Virus record (IMG/VR): IMGVR_UViG_3300037797_000018 | Location: 1-35,578 of that record | DNA length: 35,578 bases | Reading direction: 5' to 3' (one strand) | DNA from: a virus | Taxonomy: Duplodnaviria > Caudoviricetes | Shown: piece after piece, positions 6,598 to 21,718 of the stretch | How positions within the stretch are numbered: the first letter of the stretch is position 1 | Layout of the letters: each line of letters opens with the position of its first letter | Notes under the pieces: model-generated | What the model was told of the DNA's origin: nothing | The model's input: only the letters and a program-made list of their open reading frames with translations | The model's database searches: none | Program-made: the position numbers and the translations under genes

Positions 6598-6629
6598 TAG
6601 CGCCTCCTAGTGGGTAGTTGTCAGGGTGG

Positions 6630-6658
6630 AGCGTACGAGTTAGACTGGTGCTTGTCAA
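6630..6658 (-). promoter_or_regulatory. housekeeping sigma (SigA/sigma70-type) promoter for the reverse operon
   Basis: TTGACA (6653-6658), 17-nt spacer, TACGCT (6630-6635) on the minus strand. Confidence 0.8.
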
Positions 6659-7334: not shown

Positions 7335-7627
7335 TGCCAGAGGGTGATCGCACGGACCTGTGCGAGACGTGCGGGCACGAGAAGGCTGCGCACGATCCCC
7401 CGCGTCCCGGACGCGAACGAGTGGACGGATCACCTGAGTCGGGGCACTGCTCGGCCTGCCCATGCGATAAGAAGGACGAGTCGGCGTGCCTCCACGACTA
7501 CTGCCCACGGCTCTGTGACCACGAACACGTCGATCCGCTCGATGAGCCGCGCCCGACCATGTACACGGGCTGGTACCTGTGCCGTGATTGCAATCGACGC
7601 ATCGAGCTTATGGACACGATCGCGTGA
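7334..7627 (+). CDS. Cys/His-rich protein
   Basis: TDLCETCGHEKAAH...GHCSACPC...CRDC; GGAGG RBS. Confidence 0.7.
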   Translation: MPEGDRTDLCETCGHEKAAHDPPRPGRERVDGSPESGHCSACPCDKKDESACLHDYCPRLCDHEHVDPLDEPRPTMYTGWYLCRDCNRRIELMDTIA

Positions 7628-7638
7628 CGTAACGGGAC

Positions 7639-7668
7639 GTTGCTACGCGAAACCTCGGGTCGTAGACT
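7639..7668 (+). promoter_or_regulatory. putative terS promoter overlapped by a palindromic operator
   Basis: TTGCTA (7640-7645), 17 nt, TAGACT (7663-7668); GTTGC-tacgc-GAAAC at 7639-7653. Confidence 0.6.
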
Positions 7669-7676
7669 CGGGGGCA

Positions 7677-8195
7677 ATGGCACGCACCCTCACCGCTCGT
7701 CAGCAGCGTTTTGTCGCTGAGTACGCGATCGACCTCAATGCGACGCAGGCCGCCATCCGCGCCGGCTACTCCTCACACACCGCGTACTCGCAGGGTCAAC
7801 GGCTGTTGAAGCATGTTGAAATCGCCCCTGCGATTCAACAGACCCATGTTGAAGTGACCGCCATCGTCGCTGAGCGTGTCGGGGAGGCTGCTGGCTCCGC
7901 TGCCTGGATTGTCGAGAAGGCGTGCGAGGTCGTGCTGCGTGCGTTGGCCGCGGTGCCGCTCAAGGACGCGAAGGGCAAGGTGCTGCTCGACGAAGAGGGC
8001 AACCCGGTGATGGGTGATGGCAACCTGAGCGCAGCGACGCCAGCCCTCGTGTTGCTCGCGAAGCGGTGGCCAGAGTTCTCACCGAAGGGCGACGAAGCAG
8101 GCGGGGACACGCACCAGCATCTCCACCTGCACGGGCTGAGCGACGACCAGTTGCGCGCGATTGCGCAGCGAGGGCTCGGTGATGGTTCTCGCTGA
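7677..8195 (+). CDS. terS: terminase small subunit
   Basis: LTARQQRFVAEYAIDLNATQAAIRAGYS...QGQRLL is the typical Terminase_2 N-terminus; directly upstream of TerL. Confidence 0.93.
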   Translation: MARTLTARQQRFVAEYAIDLNATQAAIRAGYSSHTAYSQGQRLLKHVEIAPAIQQTHVEVTAIVAERVGEAAGSAAWIVEKACEVVLRALAAVPLKDAKGKVLLDEEGNPVMGDGNLSAATPALVLLAKRWPEFSPKGDEAGGDTHQHLHLHGLSDDQLRAIAQRGLGDGSR

Positions 8196-10545: not shown

Positions 10546-10721
10546 CGCCTGCTGAACTGGACCGGCTCGTCGCGGCAGTCGAGCGACACGCGATGTTCGG
10601 GTGTCCTGCTACGGCTCGGCGGGATGCGCCTGACTGCGCACCGGAGGTCCACCGTCTCGCGGAGTCGGTAGTTTCGCTCCTTCGTGTCACCGAAGAACTC
10701 AAGGCGCGCATCGATGCCTGA
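10542..10721 (+). CDS. hypothetical protein
   Basis: MTPAELDRLVAAVERH...; ATGA coupling; overlaps the portal start. Confidence 0.6.
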   Translation: MTPAELDRLVAAVERHAMFGCPATARRDAPDCAPEVHRLAESVVSLLRVTEELKARIDA

Positions 10722-12861
10722 CGCATCCGTTGACACGAAGCAAATCTTTGAGCGACTGCGCAACAAGCGGCGCGAGTACGCGAACGTGCAGACACGGATG
10801 GCCGTGCGCCGTGCGCTGATCTCCCGTGTGCTCGACGCGAACGTGAAGGACAACCAGACCGGCACGAACGTCAACGCGCCCTTCGACAGTTCCACGATGA
10901 TCATCCGGTCGATGCTCGGTGAGCCGAGCAAGGCTGTGCAGCACTACGAGAACCGGCTGAGTGCGAACCAGCCGAACATCACCGTCCTCCCGATCACCAC
11001 GAAGCCCGACCTGACGAAGCGCATCGACCGGCTGGCCGGCGAGCAGGAGCGACTTGACGCGGAGCTCTGGAGTGAGGCGTGTGCCGTCGCGGGTGGGCGT
11101 GGGGAACACCAGCGGGCGGCATCGGCGATGGTGGTGGGTGGGGCTGCGTACCTGCTGACGCTGCCGAGAGATCTCGCCTTCGGGTTGCCTGATCGCGAGT
11201 ACCACGGTGACATCACCGACGAGGAAGTGGCGCTGCTGATCCGTGACGGGAAGCTGGCGCCGTCGAAGGTGAGCCATCCTCGGACTGGGGAGATGGTGTA
11301 CGCGGAGTCGGGGGACGTGTGGGCGGGGCGGCGCAAGGCTGCGATGAAGCAGCAGAAGGTCTCGGGCAAGGGGCTGTTCGTCCTGAGGGCGTTGCCGCGC
11401 GACATGGTGTTGTGCGAGAAGGACGCCGAGGGGCTGCGGTGGGGCGCGATCACGGAGACGATCCCGCAGTCCACGTTCTCCGCAGGCTCGGCGTGGGCGA
11501 AGTGGGCGGCGAAGCACGACACGTCCTACTCGGGCAATCCCGCGGCCTACTCGCTGATGCTGAACGAACGCGGGCAGGTGATCGGTGGGCTGGCGCAGGG
11601 TGGGCCGCCGACGTACCAGCAGCGCGGACAGACCTCGTTCACGTTCATCACGTACACGGATCGGGAAGACCTCGTGTACTGCGTCGCGGGGCCGAACGAC
11701 GTGGAGGGCGGGCGGGAGATTTGGCGGGGCAAGCACGGGTGCACGATCCAGGGGCAGCCCGCGTGTCCGCTGGACGAGATCGCGTGCATCCGTGGCGACA
11801 TCGACCTGCCCGATCACGAGTTCCTGACGCCGCTGGACCCGCTGTTCGCCGTCATCCCGAACGTCAACCAGTTCCTGACGATGCGCAGCAACATCGCGGT
11901 CTACAACGCGACGCCGCGGTTCGTGTCGGAGAACTCGACGGGATCGCCGTTGCGTGGTGCGGACGGTGAGCCGGTCAACGTGCAGAGTGCGCCGACGCCG
12001 GGGCTGAACCCCGAGGAGATCGCGGCGTACCCCGGCACGGTCAAGCAGCTCACGATCGACGCGAAGGATCTGGACATGGCGATCCAGACGATGTTCACGC
12101 GCATCGACCTCTACATGCCGTCACCGGTGACTCAGGGGGCGTCGGGTGCGTCGGCTCCAGCGTGGCAGGTGCACCAGCTGATCCAGCAGGCGCAAGAGAA
12201 CCTGAGGCAGCCTGCGGACAATCTCGCGGCGGGCATCCAGCGGTCGATCCTGAAGATGCACGGGTGGCTGCGTCAGTTGGACGTGTCGGTGTACTTCTGG
12301 AGTGCGCCGGGGCATCGCAAGGACTCGCGTGAGTTGCGCGGGCTGGTGGAGTTCGACCCGAAGGACTTGACCGACTCGATCACGGTGCGGATGGAGTTGG
12401 ATACGCCCGAAGACCTGATCGTGCTGGATCAGGTGGGACAGGCGAAGTTGAAGGACGGGCTGATCACGCGAGAGGGCTACTTCGAGCAGTACGCGCGTGC
12501 TCAGGACGCGAGACAGGCGACGATCGACTCGTACGCGCAGACCGTCGCGGACTCGCTTTTGTTCGGGCGCCCGCTGCCGGGATCGGCGCTGCTCTCGATG
12601 GTGGCGCAGAGAGTGATGGGACGGTTGCAGGTGGAGCTGCCCGAGTGGTCCCCGAACGCGGCGAGGGCACAGGCGCAGGATATGTCGATGGGTGCGCAGG
12701 CTCAGGTCGCGGAGCAGGAGTTGATCGCGGGTCCGCCCGCATCTGAGCCGATCGTCGCGGGAGCAGAGGACGTGAGTTTGGCGAACGCGGCGGGGGTGAG
12801 ACGGCCGGGGATGGGGATGGCTGACTCGTTGCCGGCGGCTCTTGGGATGTCGCCGGTATGA
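10714..12861 (+). CDS. portal (head-tail connector) protein
   Basis: 715-aa helix-rich ORF, the first large gene after terL; VTQGASGASAPA motif followed by a long helix; call rests mainly on size and synteny. Confidence 0.75.
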   Translation: MPDASVDTKQIFERLRNKRREYANVQTRMAVRRALISRVLDANVKDNQTGTNVNAPFDSSTMIIRSMLGEPSKAVQHYENRLSANQPNITVLPITTKPDLTKRIDRLAGEQERLDAELWSEACAVAGGRGEHQRAASAMVVGGAAYLLTLPRDLAFGLPDREYHGDITDEEVALLIRDGKLAPSKVSHPRTGEMVYAESGDVWAGRRKAAMKQQKVSGKGLFVLRALPRDMVLCEKDAEGLRWGAITETIPQSTFSAGSAWAKWAAKHDTSYSGNPAAYSLMLNERGQVIGGLAQGGPPTYQQRGQTSFTFITYTDREDLVYCVAGPNDVEGGREIWRGKHGCTIQGQPACPLDEIACIRGDIDLPDHEFLTPLDPLFAVIPNVNQFLTMRSNIAVYNATPRFVSENSTGSPLRGADGEPVNVQSAPTPGLNPEEIAAYPGTVKQLTIDAKDLDMAIQTMFTRIDLYMPSPVTQGASGASAPAWQVHQLIQQAQENLRQPADNLAAGIQRSILKMHGWLRQLDVSVYFWSAPGHRKDSRELRGLVEFDPKDLTDSITVRMELDTPEDLIVLDQVGQAKLKDGLITREGYFEQYARAQDARQATIDSYAQTVADSLLFGRPLPGSALLSMVAQRVMGRLQVELPEWSPNAARAQAQDMSMGAQAQVAEQELIAGPPASEPIVAGAEDVSLANAAGVRRPGMGMADSLPAALGMSPV

Positions 12862-13061
12862 CGAACGACGAGAAGAACCTGCGCTGTCTCGACTGCGGAC
12901 ATCGTGGCGGGTTCCACGATGACTACAACGACTTCGCCTGCCGGCTCGCGATCGGGCGGCACCCGTGCCCGTGTGTCGGTTGGGAGCCCGAGGCGTCACC
13001 CGACCCCCTCGGTGAAGGTGGGCTCTGGGGACTGAGCGGCACGATCGGACGGTCGCGATGA
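12858..13061 (+). CDS. small Cys/His protein
   Basis: RCLDCGHRGGFH...C...HPCPC; ATGA coupling at both ends. Confidence 0.6.
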   Translation: MTNDEKNLRCLDCGHRGGFHDDYNDFACRLAIGRHPCPCVGWEPEASPDPLGEGGLWGLSGTIGRSR

Positions 13062-13336
13062 GTTCGCCGCTCAGTGCTGATCTGCTTCAGGACGTGGAAG
13101 ACAAGGCCGTCGAGATGGTGATGTCCGTGCTTGAGGGCGTCGTCGAGTTGATGCAGGTGGACGGCAAGGTGTACGGCGATGTGGACCTGGATCGCGGTCA
13201 GCGGATTCTCGCGTACGAGGCGGCGGTGACGAGTGGTGAGATGAACTCGCTGGTCGTGGTGGACCCGGGGCTGGCGCGGCGCATGAGCGAGCAGTACCGC
13301 AAAGACGTGCAGGCGATGCCCGCGATGAGTGCGTGA
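13058..13336 (+). CDS. hypothetical protein
   Basis: Coupled 92-aa ORF with ordinary protein composition. Confidence 0.7.
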   Translation: MSSPLSADLLQDVEDKAVEMVMSVLEGVVELMQVDGKVYGDVDLDRGQRILAYEAAVTSGEMNSLVVVDPGLARRMSEQYRKDVQAMPAMSA

Positions 13337-15621
13337 TGGCACGGCTCAGCGCGGACCAGCTCTACGAACTCGCGGTCTCGCACTTCGGTGATCTTGGGCC
13401 GCGGTGGGTGCAGTGGGCGATCGAGACGGCAGGGGCTGAGTCGGGCGGGGCCTACGGGTCTGATGCCATCGGGGACAACTTCAAGAGTGGGCACCAGTCG
13501 GCGGACTCGGCGGCGCGGTACGACTACGGGCCGTTGCAGGTCAACAGTCAGCACGGCTTCGACGCGAAGCGGCTGGTGGACGATCCCGATTACAACTTCG
13601 CGAAGGCGCGAGAGATTCTCGATCGGCAGGGACCGGAAGCATGGGCCACGTCGAAGACGGTGATGCCGAAGGTCTTTGGAACTGGTGGACGAGGACAGGA
13701 GGGCGGGATGCCGCCTGAGGGATGGAAGTCAACGGGCGGCGGCTGGTGGACTCCCCCGGGCGGCGGTGCGCCAGAACATCACCCGGAGTGGGACTCGAGC
13801 GCGAGCGATAACAACGTGCTCATCCGCAACTTCCCTGACGGATCGCTGCGCCAGTCGTCGGATAACGGCGGCACGTGGCAGGTGATCGGCGAGTCTCCGT
13901 CTGAGGCGCAGGGGGTGTCGTACTCCGGGTCGGGGCTGCCTGCGGGGTACGTGCAGGGGTCGGACGGGTTCGTCTACAAGCAGGTGGCGGGGACGCGAGG
14001 CGGGATCACGCTGCGCCGTGCGACTCCCGGCGAGTTGACGACGCTGAACACGACGGGGGCCACGCCGCAGAAGCCGCAGACGTACACGGATGAACGCACG
14101 GGCGATCTGGTGTTCGTGGACCCGTTCTCTGGCGAGGAAGTGCGTCGCATTCCCGGCGCGTCGTGGGCGTCGATGTCACCGCAGCAGCAGGCCGAGATTC
14201 GTGCCGGCGAGCTTGGCGCTGCACGCGAGGCAGCGGCGGGGGAGAACGCGCTGGATCGCACGGCGACCGCGACGGAGAACGAGAAGAACCGCGCGGCCGC
14301 CGCAGCACAGACCGCAGCATCGATCGCGCAGCAGCAGAAGCAACTCGACGAGACGATCGCCAACAACCGACTCCAGGCGGCGCAGGCGGATCAGAACCTC
14401 GGGTTCCTCTATGACAAGTTCGCCGTCGAGACGGACGCGAACAACCGATCGGCGATGCTCGCGACGCAGCAGGCGATCTGGGGCGCGCAGCGCGACGTGC
14501 AGCAGATCAACTTCCAGTACGGGCAGCTTCAGCAGCAGGCCGCGCAGTTCAACGCGCAGCAGCAGTTCGCGGTGGAACAGGAGAACCAGCGCCGCACGGA
14601 GGCGCAGGCCGAACGCAAGCGCGCACTCGCGGAGTCGATCGGCGTCACGGCGCAGGACGCAGGCTCGCGTGGCAAGCTCGCGGCGCAGATGCTGGCGAAC
14701 CCCGGCCTCGGTGAACTCGACGCGAGTCTCGCAGGCGGTGAGGACTTCTTCACCGAGGAATCGCTTGTTCCGCTGACGGACCTGTTGGGGCAGCGAGAGG
14801 ACGCCGCGAAGCCGCCGAACTTCCTCCAGTTCAACCCGATCAGTGCTCCTGCGGCACCGAATATCCAGATGCCGAACTTCACGATGCCGACCCCGATGGC
14901 GCTCCCCCCGCGTCCGGTGCCCGTGACGCAGACTCCGGCCGCTGGTGTGGCTCCTGTGGCGTCTGGTGCGAATCCTGCGGCGAACACTGGCGGGGCTGCG
15001 TCGGGTGAACTGTCGGCCGACGACCTCATGGCGCTGATTCGTGCACAGTCGGCACCGGGGACGACAGGGGCGATCCAGGCGAAGGCGGACGGCGGGCTGG
15101 CCGAGGGCATGTACATGGGCGACGAGGAAGGGCCGGAACTGCACATCCCGCTTGGTCCCGGCGAGGCGCTGGTCATCCCTCACGGACAGGTGAAGAACTT
15201 CCTGCGCAACGTGTCGGACGTGCAGGGGATGAAGAAGGGCGGGATGTTCAAGGACGGCAAGCAGGCACCCGTCGCGGCGGACATGGTCGGCATGGGCATC
15301 AATGCGATGGCGGACGGGGGGTTCTTCTCCGAGGGCAACATCTTCGGCACGGCGCAGCCCACGGACCAAGCGGGAACGATGACGTTCTTGGCGGAGGCGT
15401 TGAAGCGTGCGCTGAGTGGGACGCCGTGGCAGCAGCAGGGCCGCGCACCGACGCCCGTGGAAGTCTCGGCGCCGGGGACGGATCCCATCGTGCAGGAGTT
15501 GGGCGGTTCACTGTCCGCGTTGGGCACGGGGACGCCGCAGGACTTGTTCTTGCGCAGGGCGCGAGCGTTGAAGCCACAGGGCATCACGGAGAGCGCGGGC
15601 GGACTGAGGCGATCGGGGTGA
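13333..15621 (+). CDS. internal virion/ejection protein with N-terminal lysozyme-like (lytic transglycosylase) domain
   Basis: AIETAGAESGG (catalytic Glu), DYGPLQVN, DPDYNFAKA, GPEAWAT; followed by a Q/A-rich coiled coil and a Pro-rich linker. Confidence 0.75.
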   Translation: MMARLSADQLYELAVSHFGDLGPRWVQWAIETAGAESGGAYGSDAIGDNFKSGHQSADSAARYDYGPLQVNSQHGFDAKRLVDDPDYNFAKAREILDRQGPEAWATSKTVMPKVFGTGGRGQEGGMPPEGWKSTGGGWWTPPGGGAPEHHPEWDSSASDNNVLIRNFPDGSLRQSSDNGGTWQVIGESPSEAQGVSYSGSGLPAGYVQGSDGFVYKQVAGTRGGITLRRATPGELTTLNTTGATPQKPQTYTDERTGDLVFVDPFSGEEVRRIPGASWASMSPQQQAEIRAGELGAAREAAAGENALDRTATATENEKNRAAAAAQTAASIAQQQKQLDETIANNRLQAAQADQNLGFLYDKFAVETDANNRSAMLATQQAIWGAQRDVQQINFQYGQLQQQAAQFNAQQQFAVEQENQRRTEAQAERKRALAESIGVTAQDAGSRGKLAAQMLANPGLGELDASLAGGEDFFTEESLVPLTDLLGQREDAAKPPNFLQFNPISAPAAPNIQMPNFTMPTPMALPPRPVPVTQTPAAGVAPVASGANPAANTGGAASGELSADDLMALIRAQSAPGTTGAIQAKADGGLAEGMYMGDEEGPELHIPLGPGEALVIPHGQVKNFLRNVSDVQGMKKGGMFKDGKQAPVAADMVGMGINAMADGGFFSEGNIFGTAQPTDQAGTMTFLAEALKRALSGTPWQQQGRAPTPVEVSAPGTDPIVQELGGSLSALGTGTPQDLFLRRARALKPQGITESAGGLRRSG

Positions 15622-15625
15622 CGCC

Positions 15626-18600
15626 GTGGTGATGTCGGAGCCGAGAAGCTGGTACGAGCGTCGTCAGGCGGATCAGCGCAAGCGATACCCCGAACTGGAC
15701 CTCGCCGATCCCGTGATGGTGTCGAGCGTGGACGCACGGCGAATCTCACGGGGCGAGTTGCCATCGCAGATGACGCAGGACACGACGCGGATCGCGGCGG
15801 ACATTGCGCGAGCGAAGGGCGGTGACACGTCTGGCAACGGGTTCCTGTCGAACCTGTGGCCGGGAGCGCGCAACGTTGCCGGGGCGCTGCTCGGGCCGCA
15901 AGTCGAGCAAACCGGGCGGCTGTTGGAACACCTCGGGCGTCCTGCTGGTGCGGCGACAGCGGCGCTTGCGGGCCGGACGCCGGGAGAGTCCGCGCGCGGA
16001 CTCGTTGAGGGATTCCGTGACCCGGTGGAGGGCGTCCAGCGAGGCCGTGACGCGGGGTTCGTGCGTCACCTGTCGGATGATCCGGCTGAGACGTTGCGGC
16101 GGGGGGCAGGGGCGACACCGCTCGCAGCCGTGGCCGCACGGCTTGGGTTCAGCCCGCGAGACATCGGCGGCGCTGCCGTTCCTGCCGTTGCTGATCCGCT
16201 GAACTTCGTGCCGGGGCTCGGACCGACGAAGCAGATCGTGCAGGGTTCGCGTCGGGCGAATCGCGCGGTGGCTGCGACGGGTCGCGCAGGGGATCGCCTT
16301 CGCAAAGCTGCTCCTTTCGGTGGGCTGGACGAGGCCGGCGATGCTGTGGCCGACGCGCGTTTCACTCGACAACTTGAACCCGATGCCCCCGCCCCGTACG
16401 AAGCGCCTCCGACCGTGCGGCGGCTCTACGGCTCGCGCGACATCGAGGAAGGCGCGGTGCGCGGGCGTGGGGAGCGACTGGCCGAGAGCGGGCGCTTCCG
16501 TGCCGACGATCCGATCGTTACTCCCGCGCTGCGGGTGCGCGACGAGAGCAGGCAGGCCGTCACGAACCAGGCGACCCGCGTTGAAGCGCAGGCACGTACC
16601 GCGATCAAGCGATCGGGGTTCAAGTTCGAGGGACCGCCCGACGCGCAACGCATTCCGGCACTCGCTGGCATCGACCCGAGTGTTCCCGGCGCTCCGACGC
16701 TGCGTGACGTGATGGCGCGTCGCCCGGTGTACGAGCCACACCTGACGCCACAGCAGCGGCAGTCGCTCGATGCGCTCGGGGAATCGCTGACTCCGTACCG
16801 GCAGGGGCTGGACGAGGTGGCCGAGGCCGAGGCCGCGCTGACCGGCAAGCCATCGACGATCAAGATCGGGTCACGTGCCGACGTTATGGAGGGCGGGGTC
16901 TACATCCCGCGTGGAACTGCTGAGACGGAAGAACTGGCCGACATTGCGGCGCGTCGTGTCGGCGGCGGCGGCCGGCGTGCCGGGGGCAAGCAGGGGTTCG
17001 AGAAGTCTGCGACGTTCGCGTCCGAGGCCGAAGGAATCGAGGCTGGCTATCGCTACACGCCTGTCTCCGAGGCGATGGGCGGGTACGTGCGTGGGGCTGG
17101 GAACCGCACGCTCGATCGGCACACGGCTAACTACTTCATCAGTCGCGTAGACGACGCAGGAAAGCGGATCGCGGAGACGCGCGCAGATCGCGTTGACCCC
17201 GGACTGCGCGCGGACGTGGAGGCTCTGCGGACACGCATCTCAGGGCGGCAGGCGACATTCGGCCGCAGGGTGACGCGGCAGCAGGCGCAGGAGCGTGCGG
17301 CCGTCGAAGCGGAACGCACCGCAGAGGGAGTCGAAGGCATCCGCGACAAGCGCGGGGCCGCGTTCGACGACCGCACGGGGCTCTCGACGGACGAGGCAAT
17401 CCGCGCGGCTGAGCGTGAGCTGGACTCGCTTGAACGCGCAGCACGGCAGACAGAGAGCGCCGCGGATGTGTCACGTGGGCGGGCAGAACGCACGGCGATG
17501 GGGGCCGTGGACACGAACGAGGAGCTGGCGCGGTTCCGCGCGGAACTCGACGAACTGAGCCCACGCTGGAGGCGAGCGCAGGAGCAGGCCGCATCGACGC
17601 CGCGCGATCAGGGCACGATCCCGTTGGCGGGACTTGAGGCGTACTCGTTCCCGTGGGAGATGGCGGACGAGGCGACACGCATCCTGCGGTCAGAGATCCG
17701 CGGGGCAGCAGGCGACATCAGCGGACCACTGCGGGCCATCAACAGCATCGCGCGAGGCGTGCAGGCCACGGGTGAGATGTCGTACCTCGGCATCCAGATG
17801 GCGATCGGCATGTTCTCCGATCCCGCGGGGTGGGCGCGTGCAGGGAAGGCCGCGACGCGGGCGTGGCTGAACTCGGGCGACGAGGTGATGGGTTCGTTCG
17901 TTGCGAACTTCGACCAGCGCGCGGTGAACGCGGGACGGCCGTCGTCCGAACGGTGGGCTGCGTCGGGGTTGCGGCTTGCGGAGTCGGGCACGGAGTTTCG
18001 CGTAGGCGGGCGCAAGGTGCCCACCAAAGTACAAGGCGTGGCGGAGTCACGAGCAGGGCGAGCCGCAACATTCGTTCCGCGGCAGCTCGTGAAGCGAGCG
18101 GATCGTGGGTTCGGTGTAGCGGGCGACACGATGCGACTGGAGCTCGCGGACACGCTCGCTGAGGAAGCGCTGGCGAAGGGGCGCAGGCTCACCGATACGG
18201 AACTGCGCACGCTGGCGGAGAGTGCGAACCGCGTCACGGGCTGGACGCCGCAGCGCGCCTTCGGGTCATGGGGCGAGGCTGCGAACTTTGCGCCGCGATA
18301 CCTGGCCGCTCGCGCCCGTGCTGCGGGACAGCTCGCATCGACCGACCCGCGTAAGCGCCAGATCGCGCGCAGGCTGGTGGGCCGGTACATGGCGATCGGC
18401 GCGACCATGACGATCGCGATCAACGAACTGTCAGGCGAGGAAACGGATTTCCGGCCGTTCAGCGGGAGCAAGGGGCCGACGTTCAATCCGCTCGACGCCG
18501 AGTACAAGAACCCGAACTTCATGCGCGTGATCAACAAGCTCGGGCGTGACTGGTCACTGCTCGGACCGATGGATGCGCTGTTCGGGGTGGTGGTGGGTGC

Positions 18601-19378
18601 GGGCTCGCTGGCGACGAATCCGACCGGCGACCCGGAGGAGATACTGAGGCGGATGCGCACGGTGCTCTCCGGGCCGATCGCGTCCCTCGGGCTCGACTGG
18701 CTCGTGTTCGGAGAGAGCTTCGAGAGGGAGCCGCTCGATTTCGATTCGCGTGCCGGGCAGATGGATCTCCTTCAGCGCGTGGTGCCGTTCGCTGCGCCTG
18801 AACTCGTGGAGTCGGCGGTAGTAACGAAGCAGGCGGCAGAAGGAGGCTCCGTTGGCGGGGCCGTGAGCGAGGCGGTGGGTGGCACGCTGGAGGGGTTCGT
18901 CGGTGGGCGCGGGTCGGCCCTGACCCCGCGGGAGCGCGTGCTGCGTGGAGAGTTCGAGGAACTCACGCCCGAGAAGCGATTCGAGGCCATCGCTGCTGAG
19001 TCGTGGCGGATCATGGGGGACCAGGAATCGCTCAAGGGGATGATGGGCGACGCCGAGAACGTGTTTCAGTGGCGCCAGCAGACCGAGAAGGACTTGCGCG
19101 AGCAACTCACGAATTCGGGGCTACAGGCTGGTGAGGTACAGGCTCAGATCGATAGCGCGGTCGTTTCACACCCGCTCTACCGGGCGTATCTCGACTTGCG
19201 TACGGCACTGCGGACGCAGTGGGTAATCTCCCACCCGGCCGAAGCCGTGAAGAAGTGGAACGCCGACGCGAGCAAGGCGTGGGATGACTCGTCGAAGTGG
19301 AGCCCGACGAAGGAACAGCGTGAGATTATGACCGGGTGGATGCGGGCGACCGGCGCCCCGGCAGAAGCCGCGCCGTGA
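15626..19378 (+). CDS. large internal virion (DNA ejection) protein
   Basis: 1250-aa Ala/Arg/Gly-rich helical, Cys-free ORF; ADPLNFVPG motif is typical of podovirus ejection proteins. Confidence 0.65.
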   Translation: MVMSEPRSWYERRQADQRKRYPELDLADPVMVSSVDARRISRGELPSQMTQDTTRIAADIARAKGGDTSGNGFLSNLWPGARNVAGALLGPQVEQTGRLLEHLGRPAGAATAALAGRTPGESARGLVEGFRDPVEGVQRGRDAGFVRHLSDDPAETLRRGAGATPLAAVAARLGFSPRDIGGAAVPAVADPLNFVPGLGPTKQIVQGSRRANRAVAATGRAGDRLRKAAPFGGLDEAGDAVADARFTRQLEPDAPAPYEAPPTVRRLYGSRDIEEGAVRGRGERLAESGRFRADDPIVTPALRVRDESRQAVTNQATRVEAQARTAIKRSGFKFEGPPDAQRIPALAGIDPSVPGAPTLRDVMARRPVYEPHLTPQQRQSLDALGESLTPYRQGLDEVAEAEAALTGKPSTIKIGSRADVMEGGVYIPRGTAETEELADIAARRVGGGGRRAGGKQGFEKSATFASEAEGIEAGYRYTPVSEAMGGYVRGAGNRTLDRHTANYFISRVDDAGKRIAETRADRVDPGLRADVEALRTRISGRQATFGRRVTRQQAQERAAVEAERTAEGVEGIRDKRGAAFDDRTGLSTDEAIRAAERELDSLERAARQTESAADVSRGRAERTAMGAVDTNEELARFRAELDELSPRWRRAQEQAASTPRDQGTIPLAGLEAYSFPWEMADEATRILRSEIRGAAGDISGPLRAINSIARGVQATGEMSYLGIQMAIGMFSDPAGWARAGKAATRAWLNSGDEVMGSFVANFDQRAVNAGRPSSERWAASGLRLAESGTEFRVGGRKVPTKVQGVAESRAGRAATFVPRQLVKRADRGFGVAGDTMRLELADTLAEEALAKGRRLTDTELRTLAESANRVTGWTPQRAFGSWGEAANFAPRYLAARARAAGQLASTDPRKRQIARRLVGRYMAIGATMTIAINELSGEETDFRPFSGSKGPTFNPLDAEYKNPNFMRVINKLGRDWSLLGPMDALFGVVVGAGSLATNPTGDPEEILRRMRTVLSGPIASLGLDWLVFGESFEREPLDFDSRAGQMDLLQRVVPFAAPELVESAVVTKQAAEGGSVGGAVSEAVGGTLEGFVGGRGSALTPRERVLRGEFEELTPEKRFEAIAAESWRIMGDQESLKGMMGDAENVFQWRQQTEKDLREQLTNSGLQAGEVQAQIDSAVVSHPLYRAYLDLRTALRTQWVISHPAEAVKKWNADASKAWDDSSKWSPTKEQREIMTGWMRATGAPAEAAP

Positions 19379-19379
19379 G

Positions 19380-19589
19380 TTACTGGCCGTCTACGCAGGA
19401 CTCGAACATGGCTGTATACATCTCGCGGAGCTCGGGATCGTGTTCAGCTCTGGTGTGGAGCGACGCTAGCTCGCGGCGGCACACGTTTTCGGCGGTGAGC
19501 GGTCCGCCGTATTCGAATCGTGCCCACACGGCGAGCACTGCGATCGCCACGAACACGATGATGAAGGCGCGGCCGTCGGTCAGTCTCAT
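19380..19589 (-). CDS. small membrane-anchored or secreted protein
   Basis: N-terminal hydrophobic helix and two Cys; GAGGTGGAG RBS on the minus strand; fills the gap exactly. Confidence 0.6.
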   Translation of the reverse strand: MRLTDGRAFIIVFVAIAVLAVWARFEYGGPLTAENVCRRELASLHTRAEHDPELREMYTAMFESCVDGQ

Positions 19590-19613
19590 GTCTCCACCTC
19601 AGGGGCAAAGCAT

Positions 19614-19766
19614 ATGACGGCGGTCGTGTCGGTGTTACCCCGTGAGATCGAGGAGCGCATCGCCGACTTCCTCGTTGCCGGCAAGACGGGCTCCGTCGAG
19701 TTGCACATCAACGGCGGCAGCATCGAGTCGTGGAAGATCATCGAGTCGGGCCGCGTGCGCCGATAG
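19614..19766 (+). CDS. 50-aa DUF2292/YezD-like micro-protein (not in ORF track)
   Basis: MTAVVSVLPREIEERIADFLVAGKTGSVELHINGGSIESWKIIESGRVRR: a helix, then GSVELHINGGSI beta-hairpin and a terminal E-x-x-R. Confidence 0.65.
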   Translation: MTAVVSVLPREIEERIADFLVAGKTGSVELHINGGSIESWKIIESGRVRR

Positions 19767-19797
19767 GTTGCTATGGGCGACGCGCGCGCATTAGAGT
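19767..19797 (+). promoter_or_regulatory. putative head-gene promoter overlapped by a palindromic operator
   Basis: TTGCTA (19768-19773), 18 nt, TAGAGT (19792-19797); GTTGC-tatgg-GCGAC at 19767-19781. Confidence 0.55.
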
Positions 19798-19828
19798 GAG
19801 CATCATCTAGGAACCGGGCCACCCGTAT

Positions 19829-19885
19829 AGCGGAGCCCCTTCGTGATCGTCATTCGTGACGGTCGCGCGGGGGCTCCGCTTTTTT
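19829..19885 (+). terminator. long intrinsic terminator/attenuator in the scaffold-gene leader
   Basis: 11-bp AGCGGAGCCCC/GGGGCTCCGCT stem plus an 11-bp upper stem with two G-U pairs, TTCG loop, then a T6 tract. Confidence 0.85.
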
Positions 19886-19915
19886 GTTGCCCGGAATCAA
19901 GAGGAGAGAACGTAG

Positions 19916-20794
19916 ATGGTGCAGGCGCAAGCCGCGGCTGATCCTGCTGCTGCCGCCCCGACAGCCGATCCCATCGTCACGACTGATGCCGATCCTTCCG
20001 AGGGTCAGGCGGTAGTCGAGGCAGAGGGTCAGGCGGGCGCAGTAGTCGAGGGTGCGGTCGAGGAGGCTCCGAAACCGCTTTCGCTCGCCGATGTTCCTGA
20101 GGCTGATTTGCTCGCGCACTTGCGGGAACGCAAGAACGCGGACGGACTCAGCGTCGAGGACCGGCTGCGAAAGAGCGAGCGTGACCGCTACGAGGCGTCA
20201 CGGCGTCTTGAAGCGGGCAAGGTCGAGAGCGTCACGAGGCGTACGCAGCGTTTCCTCGAAAGGCACGGGGTCGACCCGTCCGAGGCAACGCCGGAGGAGC
20301 TGGGGGAGCTGAACGCTCTCTCGCACTACGCGAACCTCGACGCGCTCGGCAACATCGGCAAGGCATGGGCTCAGGCGACCGCCGAGGAGTTCGGCGCGCA
20401 GGATTCCGTGCTCTTGCAGGAAGCACTGGCACGCTACGCGGACGACCCCACGGGCATCGACGATCTCGCGTCGAAGACGTGGATCGCTGCGCGTGATGCC
20501 GTGCGGACGCGAACGCTCGCCGAAGCGTCTCTCTCCGACGTGCCCGAGGGATCGAAGTTGCGCGCGGACATCAACGCCGAAGCGCAGCGGCTGGCGGATG
20601 TCGAACTCCAGGCACGCGAACTCGCGGCCCGGCAGAAGGACTCGCCGCCATCGGCTCCCGTGGGTGCGCCGAGCGCATCCCAAGAAGAACGCTACCGCTC
20701 CATGAACGCAGGCGAAGTCTCGCTGCTGCCACCCGCCGAATACGAGGCGTGGATGACGTGGCGTGCTGCGCAGCCTTCGGGGGCGCGCCGCTAA
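19916..20794 (+). CDS. capsid scaffolding protein
   Basis: Acidic disordered N-terminus, helical body, Pro/Ser linker and short C-terminal helix; directly upstream of the MCP; GAGGAG RBS. Confidence 0.75.
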   Translation: MVQAQAAADPAAAAPTADPIVTTDADPSEGQAVVEAEGQAGAVVEGAVEEAPKPLSLADVPEADLLAHLRERKNADGLSVEDRLRKSERDRYEASRRLEAGKVESVTRRTQRFLERHGVDPSEATPEELGELNALSHYANLDALGNIGKAWAQATAEEFGAQDSVLLQEALARYADDPTGIDDLASKTWIAARDAVRTRTLAEASLSDVPEGSKLRADINAEAQRLADVELQARELAARQKDSPPSAPVGAPSASQEERYRSMNAGEVSLLPPAEYEAWMTWRAAQPSGARR

Positions 20795-20803
20795 GGGACT
20801 GAC

Positions 20804-21718
20804 ATGACCATTTCCGACAGCGTCGGGAGTGCAGCGGGCATTCCGACGATCTGGCATCCCGCACTGCTGAGGCAGATGCGAACCCCGCTCGTGTTCCTCG
20901 GGCTCACCACGCGTGAGTACGAGGGCGACATCACGCAGGCAGGCGACACGGTACGCATCGTCACGACCACGGCCGTGACTCGTGCTGCCTACGTACGTGG
21001 AACCCCGATCACGGCTGAACGGCTGGTGCTCGCGGGGCAGGAGCTCGTGATCGACAAGCAGTACGGATTCAACTTCGAGGTGAACGACCTCGACATGCGG
21101 CAGGTCAAGCCGAACTTCGTGGAGGAGCAGTCCTCGGTCGCGACGTACACGCTCCGCAAGGGCCGCGACTCGGACATCGCGCTGGCGATGCAGGCGGGCG
21201 CCGGGACGGACCTCGGAGACTTCTCCGTGGGTACGGGCGCAGGCGACGCGGATGCGTTCGAGATTCTCGCGCGCATGGCGACGGAACTCGACGAGAACGA
21301 CACCCCGGACAACGGCGCGATGCCGAGCATGGACGCCGAGGGCGGGCCTGACGGCGGGTTCCGCTTCGTCGTGGTGCCGCCGTTCTTCGCCGAGATGCTG
21401 GTCATCGACCCGCGCAAGTCCTCGTTCGGCACGACCGACAACCTCAAGACCTACGGCGAGCGGTACATCGGCCGTTCCGCTGCGGGGCTCGAGATCTTCA
21501 AGTCCAACCAACTCCCGGCGGGCATCGCGAACTCGTCCACGCACACGGACATCATCGGGGGTTGGTCACGGGCGACGGCGTTTGCCGGCCAGTTGACGCA
21601 GTTCGAGACGCAGCGGGTACAGGGCGACTTCGCCGACTTCCACCTGGGGCTCGACGTGTACGGCACGAAGGTGATCCGCGCTGCGCAGATCGTTCGTGCA
21701 GAAGTCGTGAGGGCTTAA
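20804..21718 (+). CDS. major capsid protein (P22 coat-like, HK97 fold)
   Basis: IPTIW, REYEGDITQAGDTVRI, LVIDKQYGFNFEVNDLD, RFVVVPP, IGRSAAGLEIFKSN, GLDVYGTKVIR. Confidence 0.92.
   Translation: MTISDSVGSAAGIPTIWHPALLRQMRTPLVFLGLTTREYEGDITQAGDTVRIVTTTAVTRAAYVRGTPITAERLVLAGQELVIDKQYGFNFEVNDLDMRQVKPNFVEEQSSVATYTLRKGRDSDIALAMQAGAGTDLGDFSVGTGAGDADAFEILARMATELDENDTPDNGAMPSMDAEGGPDGGFRFVVVPPFFAEMLVIDPRKSSFGTTDNLKTYGERYIGRSAAGLEIFKSNQLPAGIANSSTHTDIIGGWSRATAFAGQLTQFETQRVQGDFADFHLGLDVYGTKVIRAAQIVRAEVVRA

Follow-up and report, generated by a model that had tools for sequence, protein, structure and literature searches.

Lambda N, together with nut/boxB, pairs a small phage protein with a short promoter-proximal RNA hairpin. 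In LicT/RAT, as described in the accessible part of PMC5393181, the antiterminator hairpin and the terminator overlap by 8 nt, and the hairpin is captured kinetically before the terminator completes. Candidate structured RNAs, GP20-a and GP20-b among them, lie upstream of phage head genes (PMC10690425, accessible text), and OscA appears in the accessible parts of PMC2996968 and PMC3596284 only as a small, functionally uncharacterised product of the oscA-sbp sulfate unit. The stretch of DNA analysed here, which we call the window, spans an entire linear virus record (35,578 bases, estimated completeness 88%). Its genes run from the terminase small and large subunits through three large genes and the locus of a small gene to a 292-aa gene and the major head protein, with the following features:

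6618 to 6658, both strands: overlapping promoter-like pair, TTGTCA-17-TAGACT on + and TTGACA-17-TACGCT on -
7640 to 7668, + strand: sister promoter-like site TTGCTA-17-TAGACT, 9 nt 5' of the ATG at 7678, with no gate after it (from sequence)
19601 to 19605, + strand: Shine-Dalgarno-like AGGGG, 8 nt 5' of the small ORF (from sequence)
19614 to 19766, + strand: small gene with ATG start, 50 aa, candidate antiterminator (from the ORF, homologues and a model)
19768 to 19797, + strand: sigma-70-like promoter candidate TTGCTA-18-TAGAGT, right after the small gene's stop codon (from sequence)
19816 to 19838, + strand: hairpin of two stems separated by a 3x1 internal loop (CAC / A), candidate antiterminator and protein-binding site (from fold and covariation)
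19829 to 19885, + strand: intrinsic-terminator-like hairpin with U6 (predicted fold)
19900 to 19906, + strand: Shine-Dalgarno sequence AGAGGAG of the first gated gene (from sequence)
19916 to 20794, + strand: putative head scaffolding protein, 292 aa (from position)
20804 to 21718, + strand: major head protein (phrog_267, E 7.9e-34)

The predicted folds place a candidate antiterminator hairpin over the 5' arm of an intrinsic terminator, a trait of the BglG/SacY/LicT systems. As in those systems, so far as the accessible part of PMC5393181 describes them, a weak internal-loop hairpin with a variable apical loop lends its 3' strand to the terminator's 5' arm; the overlap is 10 nt here vs. 8 nt in RAT, and the protein has 50 residues vs. 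the ~55 of the RNA-binding unit there (PMC5393181, same part). Unlike RAT, the hairpin has one internal loop instead of two and no RAT match in Rfam, and unlike BglG, SacY and LicT, the proposed regulator is a stand-alone protein, and what follows it are head genes of a phage, not sugar operons. Neither a CAT_RBD nor a PRD domain was found in the window's protein (Pfam) or among the matches of the 74 homologues, and 50 residues leave no room for PRDs. The module most likely works like BglG/RAT yet fails membership on both its protein and its RNA. Resemblances to the other systems are likewise partial. A small phage protein and a short promoter-proximal hairpin recall lambda N with boxB; unlike N, the protein is predicted to fold as a helix plus beta-hairpin and its sequence holds no arginine-rich motif, the hairpin overlaps the terminator, and the genes behind it are late, not early. 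With lambda Q, and with AlpA as presented in the accessible part of PMC7969949, the locus shares a regulator gene that directly precedes a promoter, behind which come a short leader and a terminator guarding late genes; whereas Q and AlpA bind promoter DNA and polymerase, here it is the transcribed hairpin that is conserved and the promoter spacer that varies. Like GP20-a and GP20-b, the element is a structured RNA upstream of phage structural genes, and unlike them it has a proposed partner protein, none being described in the accessible text of PMC10690425. The element was not found in six supplementary files of that paper, as far as these extend, and may still be among its 10,006 candidates. 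Rfam gave no match for the window (nine weak rows, all below cut-off) or for 20 loci. Literature on DUF2292/YezD, OscA and antitermination, covered at title and abstract level and with few subscription journals, held no description of the module.

The three large genes between terminase and head (725, 762 and 1250 aa, at 10684-19378 on the + strand) had no match in Pfam or PHROG and are probably portal and ejection proteins. The product of 19916-20794, which had been called the scaffold, also gave no significant family match in Pfam or PHROG; the name is kept on placement and composition, the next gene is indeed a major head protein, and at two other loci (L015 and L054) PHROG scaffolds occupy the equivalent position. 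On the minus strand, oriented head to head with the small gene at a distance of 24 nt, is a 69-aa ORF (19380-19589) that has an SD-like GAGGTG, is hydrophobic towards its N-terminus and has no family match in Pfam, PHROG or NCBIfam; the closest relative, L011, has a different small hydrophobic minus-strand ORF in the same place.

The 50-aa ORF singled out by the original prediction is present and is a conserved gene: a profile built from three close sequences matched 73 representatives (the 74-row protein alignment omits one 919-aa repeat match). Its GC3 is 0.92. An overlapping 50-aa ORF at 19642-19794 was rejected, its GC3 of 0.60 and second-position GC of 0.88 being those of the real gene's shifted frame. 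Between the window and L011, 49 codons comprise 25 identical, 11 synonymous and 13 non-synonymous positions, and the two proteins are 74% identical. Conserved residues in the family include P9, F19, T25, G26, L30, G35, E44 and R47. The protein is neutral in charge (7 K+R, 7 D+E), and no known RNA-binding family, and no Q or HTH family, occurs among the family matches of the protein and its homologues in Pfam and NCBIfam or, for Q and HTH, Pfam and PHROG. The predicted model (pLDDT 84) contains one helix and a beta-hairpin; searches of solved structures with it found no fold match (Foldseek, best E 1.2; VIA-align, best Z 3.4, rmsd 5.0 over 42 aligned residues), and in the ESM Atlas, where the best score was 0.87, one cluster at 0.80 carries DUF2292 on 11% of its members, which serves as a lead only.

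We could partly uphold the proposed resemblance to DUF2292/YezD. Aligned by hhalign with eight genuine DUF2292/OscA proteins, the 74-sequence profile scored P 91% and E 1e-6 over 43 columns, falling to P 47% and E 2e-4 when only the 13 closest rows were used, and 12 of the 74 homologues match PF10055 weakly (best E 1e-4). Formal membership failed: the window's own protein has no match in Pfam, PHROG or NCBIfam, lies below the PF10055 gathering cut-off of 22 bits with no match at E 0.1, and does not match NF033785 (OscA), which asks for 85 bits and a position before sbp, the context here being phage head genes. By its sequence, the protein is a distant DUF2292/OscA relative and no formal member. 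A further likeness to DUF2292/YezD (PF10055) and OscA (NF033785) is that an AC-N10-GAG-type hairpin lies just 3' of the gene in both.

The promoter-like sequence of the original prediction is also there, with boxes at 19768-19773 (TTGCTA) and 19792-19797 (TAGAGT) and 8 of 12 consensus matches, though a consensus scan missed it (0 found); under approximate sigma-70 weights, it is the 6th best site of the window, both strands included. Transcription would start near 19804. The hexamer ATCTAG at 19805-19810, near this point, is the same in the window and L011 although the neighbouring bases differ. L011 keeps the site as TTGCTA-17-TAGGAT, and 14 of 17 loci have, no more than 75 nt from the hairpin, a promoter-like site that falls in the top 5% of background windows, most of which are coding sequence; across loci such sites stand 14-45 nt 5' of the hairpin. 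The peptide trace of an in-frame TTGACA occurs at the C-terminus of 28 of the 69 homologues with a parsable tail (five tails were left unparsed) vs. 4.9 in shuffles (maximum 12). Because the promoter-like site lies at the 3' end of the gene, the small gene is upstream of the gated transcript and its product would have to act in trans. The -35/-10 spacer itself is not conserved (top base frequency 0.31-0.54 in 13 loci) and differs even between the window and L011, which weakly disfavours a DNA site of the Q/AlpA type, though such elements can be phage-specific. A separate promoter between the terminator and the head genes would have spoken against a gate; no promoter-like site above 4 bits was found at 19885-19916. 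Elsewhere in the window, the TTGCTA-type pattern, which was written only after both of its sites (7640 and 19768) had been seen, recurs at 7640-7668, from which the transcript carrying the small gene may arise; ATG 7678 is probably the true start of the terminase small subunit, on a nearly leaderless mRNA, and the longer GTG call at 7344 probably wrong. The window's two best promoter-like sites overlap on opposite strands at 6618-6658, before an HNH gene. A GGGCGAC within the promoter spacer, considered as a second hairpin, was dropped for want of a GAG/GCCC partner.

Folding bears out the hairpin at 19816-19838 (-8.8 kcal/mol as drawn, -10.0 with one extra U-G pair) and its 10-nt overlap with the terminator at 19829-19838. 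The terminator (-44.7 kcal/mol) is the strongest of seven hairpin-plus-U-tract sites in the window, and the region 19760-19920 has a folding z of -4.9 vs. shuffles. Two details of the original prediction needed correction: its G-U pairs favour the + strand but do not make the terminator exclusive to it (-35.0 on the minus strand vs. -43.2), and the UUCG loop is present but closed by A-U, and so is no cUUCGg tetraloop. In the window's predicted fold, both stems of the small hairpin have their 3' strand taken up by the terminator's 3' arm; the terminator arm is five bases longer than usual and spans both stems, as in L082. When the growing transcript is folded, at equilibrium and not kinetically, the hairpin is formed (p about 0.99) to about 19871 and gone by 19874, and L011 behaves alike. 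The terminator is favoured at equilibrium in every locus examined, by 7-11.4 kcal/mol over the forced hairpin in 13 of 17 loci, a range that a tight protein binder might offset, and by 16-17 kcal/mol in three (the value for L012 is unreliable). The window has the largest gap, 17.1 kcal/mol, because its terminator arm spans both stems, and with such a gap only kinetic capture could work. The element is present once in the window (next E 0.82) and once in each of 5/5 other records; the copy-number scan also showed one extra weak antisense overlap of the element model.

The small gene and the hairpin element travel together. Searching from the protein side with a back-translated pattern gave seven viral loci, all seven true homologues and all seven with a hairpin overlapping a terminator downstream (L012 has an insertion). 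A second protein pattern gave 10 matches, namely six known contigs, L083 (= L044, typical) and the identical contigs L082, L085 and L087, which have the same layout with a variant internal loop (the element model misses L082); this brings the protein-first total to 9/9 distinct viral loci (seven typical, two variant). Searching from the RNA side with a hairpin-plus-terminator pattern, 14 of 18 loci had a same-strand homologue ending just upstream at E < 0.01, a 15th had one at E 0.12 and three had none; once six near-identical copies had been collapsed, nine of 13 loci had a homologue and one more a weak match, and two of these loci had come up in the protein-side search before. Two of the three misses lack the overlap and look like chance, and the third stands before terminase genes with merely 324 bases upstream. 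Thus the conserved internal-loop hairpin overlapping a terminator that had been predicted next to homologues was found from both directions. Strict pairing was not: a variant RNA pattern gave six loci, of which one, already known, has a homologue by HMM, L057 has a candidate by eye only and four have none; a wider profile run over the whole records of five element loci without the protein found a homologue in 0/5, these records being fragments (8-60% complete); and two of three homologues from bacterial genomes lack the element. Of these bacterial loci, L064 and L065 have a TTGACA promoter-like site and neither hairpin nor terminator, and L031 has the terminator with a degenerate hairpin (model E 0.15). 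The gene upstream at L065 resembles, by eye, an HTH/zinc-peptidase regulator. A degenerate copy of the element also lies ahead of the terminase small and large subunit genes at L049.

Other searches returned little. An exact-hairpin DNA scan of viral contigs gave eight matches, all chance, with no terminator and no homologue; viral contigs searched with a 3-sequence alignment or the capsid protein gave no related locus; a metagenome search gave one, which ends right after the small gene; and annotated phages gave three weak matches at E 7, which we set aside. In GTDB genomes, one of 21 matches to the back-translated pattern was a true homologue, and a profile search of two phylum samples found genomes with a homologue in 0/301 and 2/301 cases. 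The genes after the gate are head or packaging genes in 11 of 21 loci; of the other 10, two have small HTH-like genes (L042 and L047) and eight are unknown or without a match.

The hairpin is a conserved element with compensatory changes in its inner stem. Its consensus is GGG(C/A)(G/C)AC-stem-GAGCCC, and RNAalifold returns the same fold of two stems and one internal loop. Among the 11 equally long copies, to which this count was restricted because loop lengths vary, 93.5% of inner-stem cells are paired vs. 79.4% in shuffles, none of 500 being as high (a control that ignores relatedness), and vs. 22-51% in slid controls. The middle pair of the inner stem (12-20) is kept in 11/11 copies with four pair types, at positions that every search pattern left free; three of the 11 copies do not form the innermost pair (13-19). 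Seven of the 11 aligned copies came from the RNA-side search, whose pattern prescribed the outer stem and the terminator arm, which provide no evidence in these seven. L011 and the window have both stems in common but differ in the loop and in the upper part of the terminator, and their capsid proteins are 32% identical.

At bacterial DUF2292/OscA loci we found a sister hairpin directly 3' of the DUF2292 gene in eight of nine loci from 201 sampled genomes. It has the AC-N10-GAG type of spacing, and all 11 matches to its pattern lie just after the gene; the pattern was drawn from these same loci, so that only the clustering is informative. The sister hairpin is in a different register, with a 4-nt loop, and the phage element model fails to detect it. 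No overlapping U-tract terminator was seen by eye at these loci, which makes other modes of action possible. L069, L071 and L074 each have a second copy, directly beside a predicted stem that would mask the Shine-Dalgarno sequence of the next gene, which suggests translational control.

We reasoned that these parts could form an antitermination switch of the RAT type, in which a new stand-alone protein stabilises the hairpin so that the capsid genes are read. Folding predicts that the hairpin forms first and is displaced once the terminator's 3' arm is made, with termination as the default. The protein would recognise the (G/C)AC x A internal loop in the nascent RNA and keep both stems closed during the polymerase pause at the U tract; of the terminator only the upper stem would remain, at too great a distance from the U tract to stop transcription, which would run on into the capsid genes. 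LicT is reported to need to capture its hairpin before the terminator completes (PMC5393181), and by analogy such capture would be required here too. Among the + strand genes the small gene comes last before the gate, and its message is probably part of the terminase-to-large-protein transcript; capsid expression would therefore be delayed until that upstream operon is translated, a simple timer. The 50-aa protein likely binds the hairpin, which would permit read-through. The micro-protein switch of the original prediction is thereby partly supported: the coupling of gene and element, the kinship to DUF2292 and the absence of a later promoter stand, whereas formal DUF2292 membership and strict pairing do not. 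We consider it fairly probable that some protein-hairpin gate operates at this locus, and the RAT-like mechanism in particular just on the probable side.

The same pair could alternatively be a loading site of the N-boxB/nut kind, from which the protein would travel with RNA polymerase and prevent termination both here and further on; the overlap would then be secondary. Such a site would accommodate both the bacterial hairpins that lack an overlapping terminator (8/9 loci) and the single promoter-proximal copy in each phage record (the window and 5/5 others); it would have no need for the hairpin's own 3' strand to build the terminator's 5' arm, which it does in all typical phage loci, and, with no arginine-rich motif in the protein and merely one strong terminator in the window, we regard this explanation as unlikely. 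To the same degree we doubt a real switch that is held by a host factor or needs no factor at all (put-like or purely kinetic), with the gene linked to it through the promoter in its 3' end or through some other late job. The -35 box, often inside the gene, would alone suffice for that link, and both the element loci at which no homologue was detected and the homologues that lack an element agree with it; however, conservation in the protein reaches far beyond the embedded -35 towards the N-terminus (P9, F19, G26, G35, E44), the pairing recurs in bacterial oscA loci, where by eye no promoter-like site lies between gene and hairpin, and the records without the protein are fragments.

The order of gene, promoter, terminator and late genes is that of Q, pR' and tR', and raises the question of whether the protein binds DNA at the adjacent promoter and alters polymerase for read-through of the terminator. 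AlpA is described in the accessible part of PMC7969949 as binding promoter DNA and then polymerase. Against such a mode stand the variable -35/-10 spacer (13 loci; window vs. L011) and the lack of an HTH or Q family match in Pfam and PHROG, and it leaves the covariation in the transcribed hairpin unexplained; we hold it to be quite improbable. An ordinary leaky terminator that ends the upstream operon, with the small hairpin incidental, would fit the equilibrium preference for the terminator in every locus, and GC-rich GGGC/GCCC pairs arise easily beside terminator stems. It does not account for the compensatory inner-stem changes, the promoter-like site 14-45 nt 5' of the hairpin would yield just a short dead-end transcript, no promoter-like site above 4 bits lies downstream of the terminator (19885-19916), and we consider it very improbable.

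To our knowledge, most sequenced phages have no recognisable late-gene regulator. If the RAT-like reading is true, a 50-residue protein and a 23-nt hairpin would amount to a very small system for antitermination, neither its protein nor its RNA being related to BglG/RAT, N or Q, and its small size would allow easy reporter testing and potential use as a compact genetic switch. A broader proposal, which we put forward tentatively and hold to be somewhat less probable than not, is that the DUF2292/OscA-like superfamily consists of unrecognised stand-alone 50-residue RNA-binding switch proteins, each with a cognate (G/C)AC-N10-GAG hairpin: in phages a late antiterminator that would time capsid synthesis, and in bacteria a sister pair in sulfur-uptake operons that at some loci would free a sequestered ribosome-binding site. 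DUF2292/YezD/OscA, so far linked merely to sulfur starvation and the chromate response, would then have a directly testable function.
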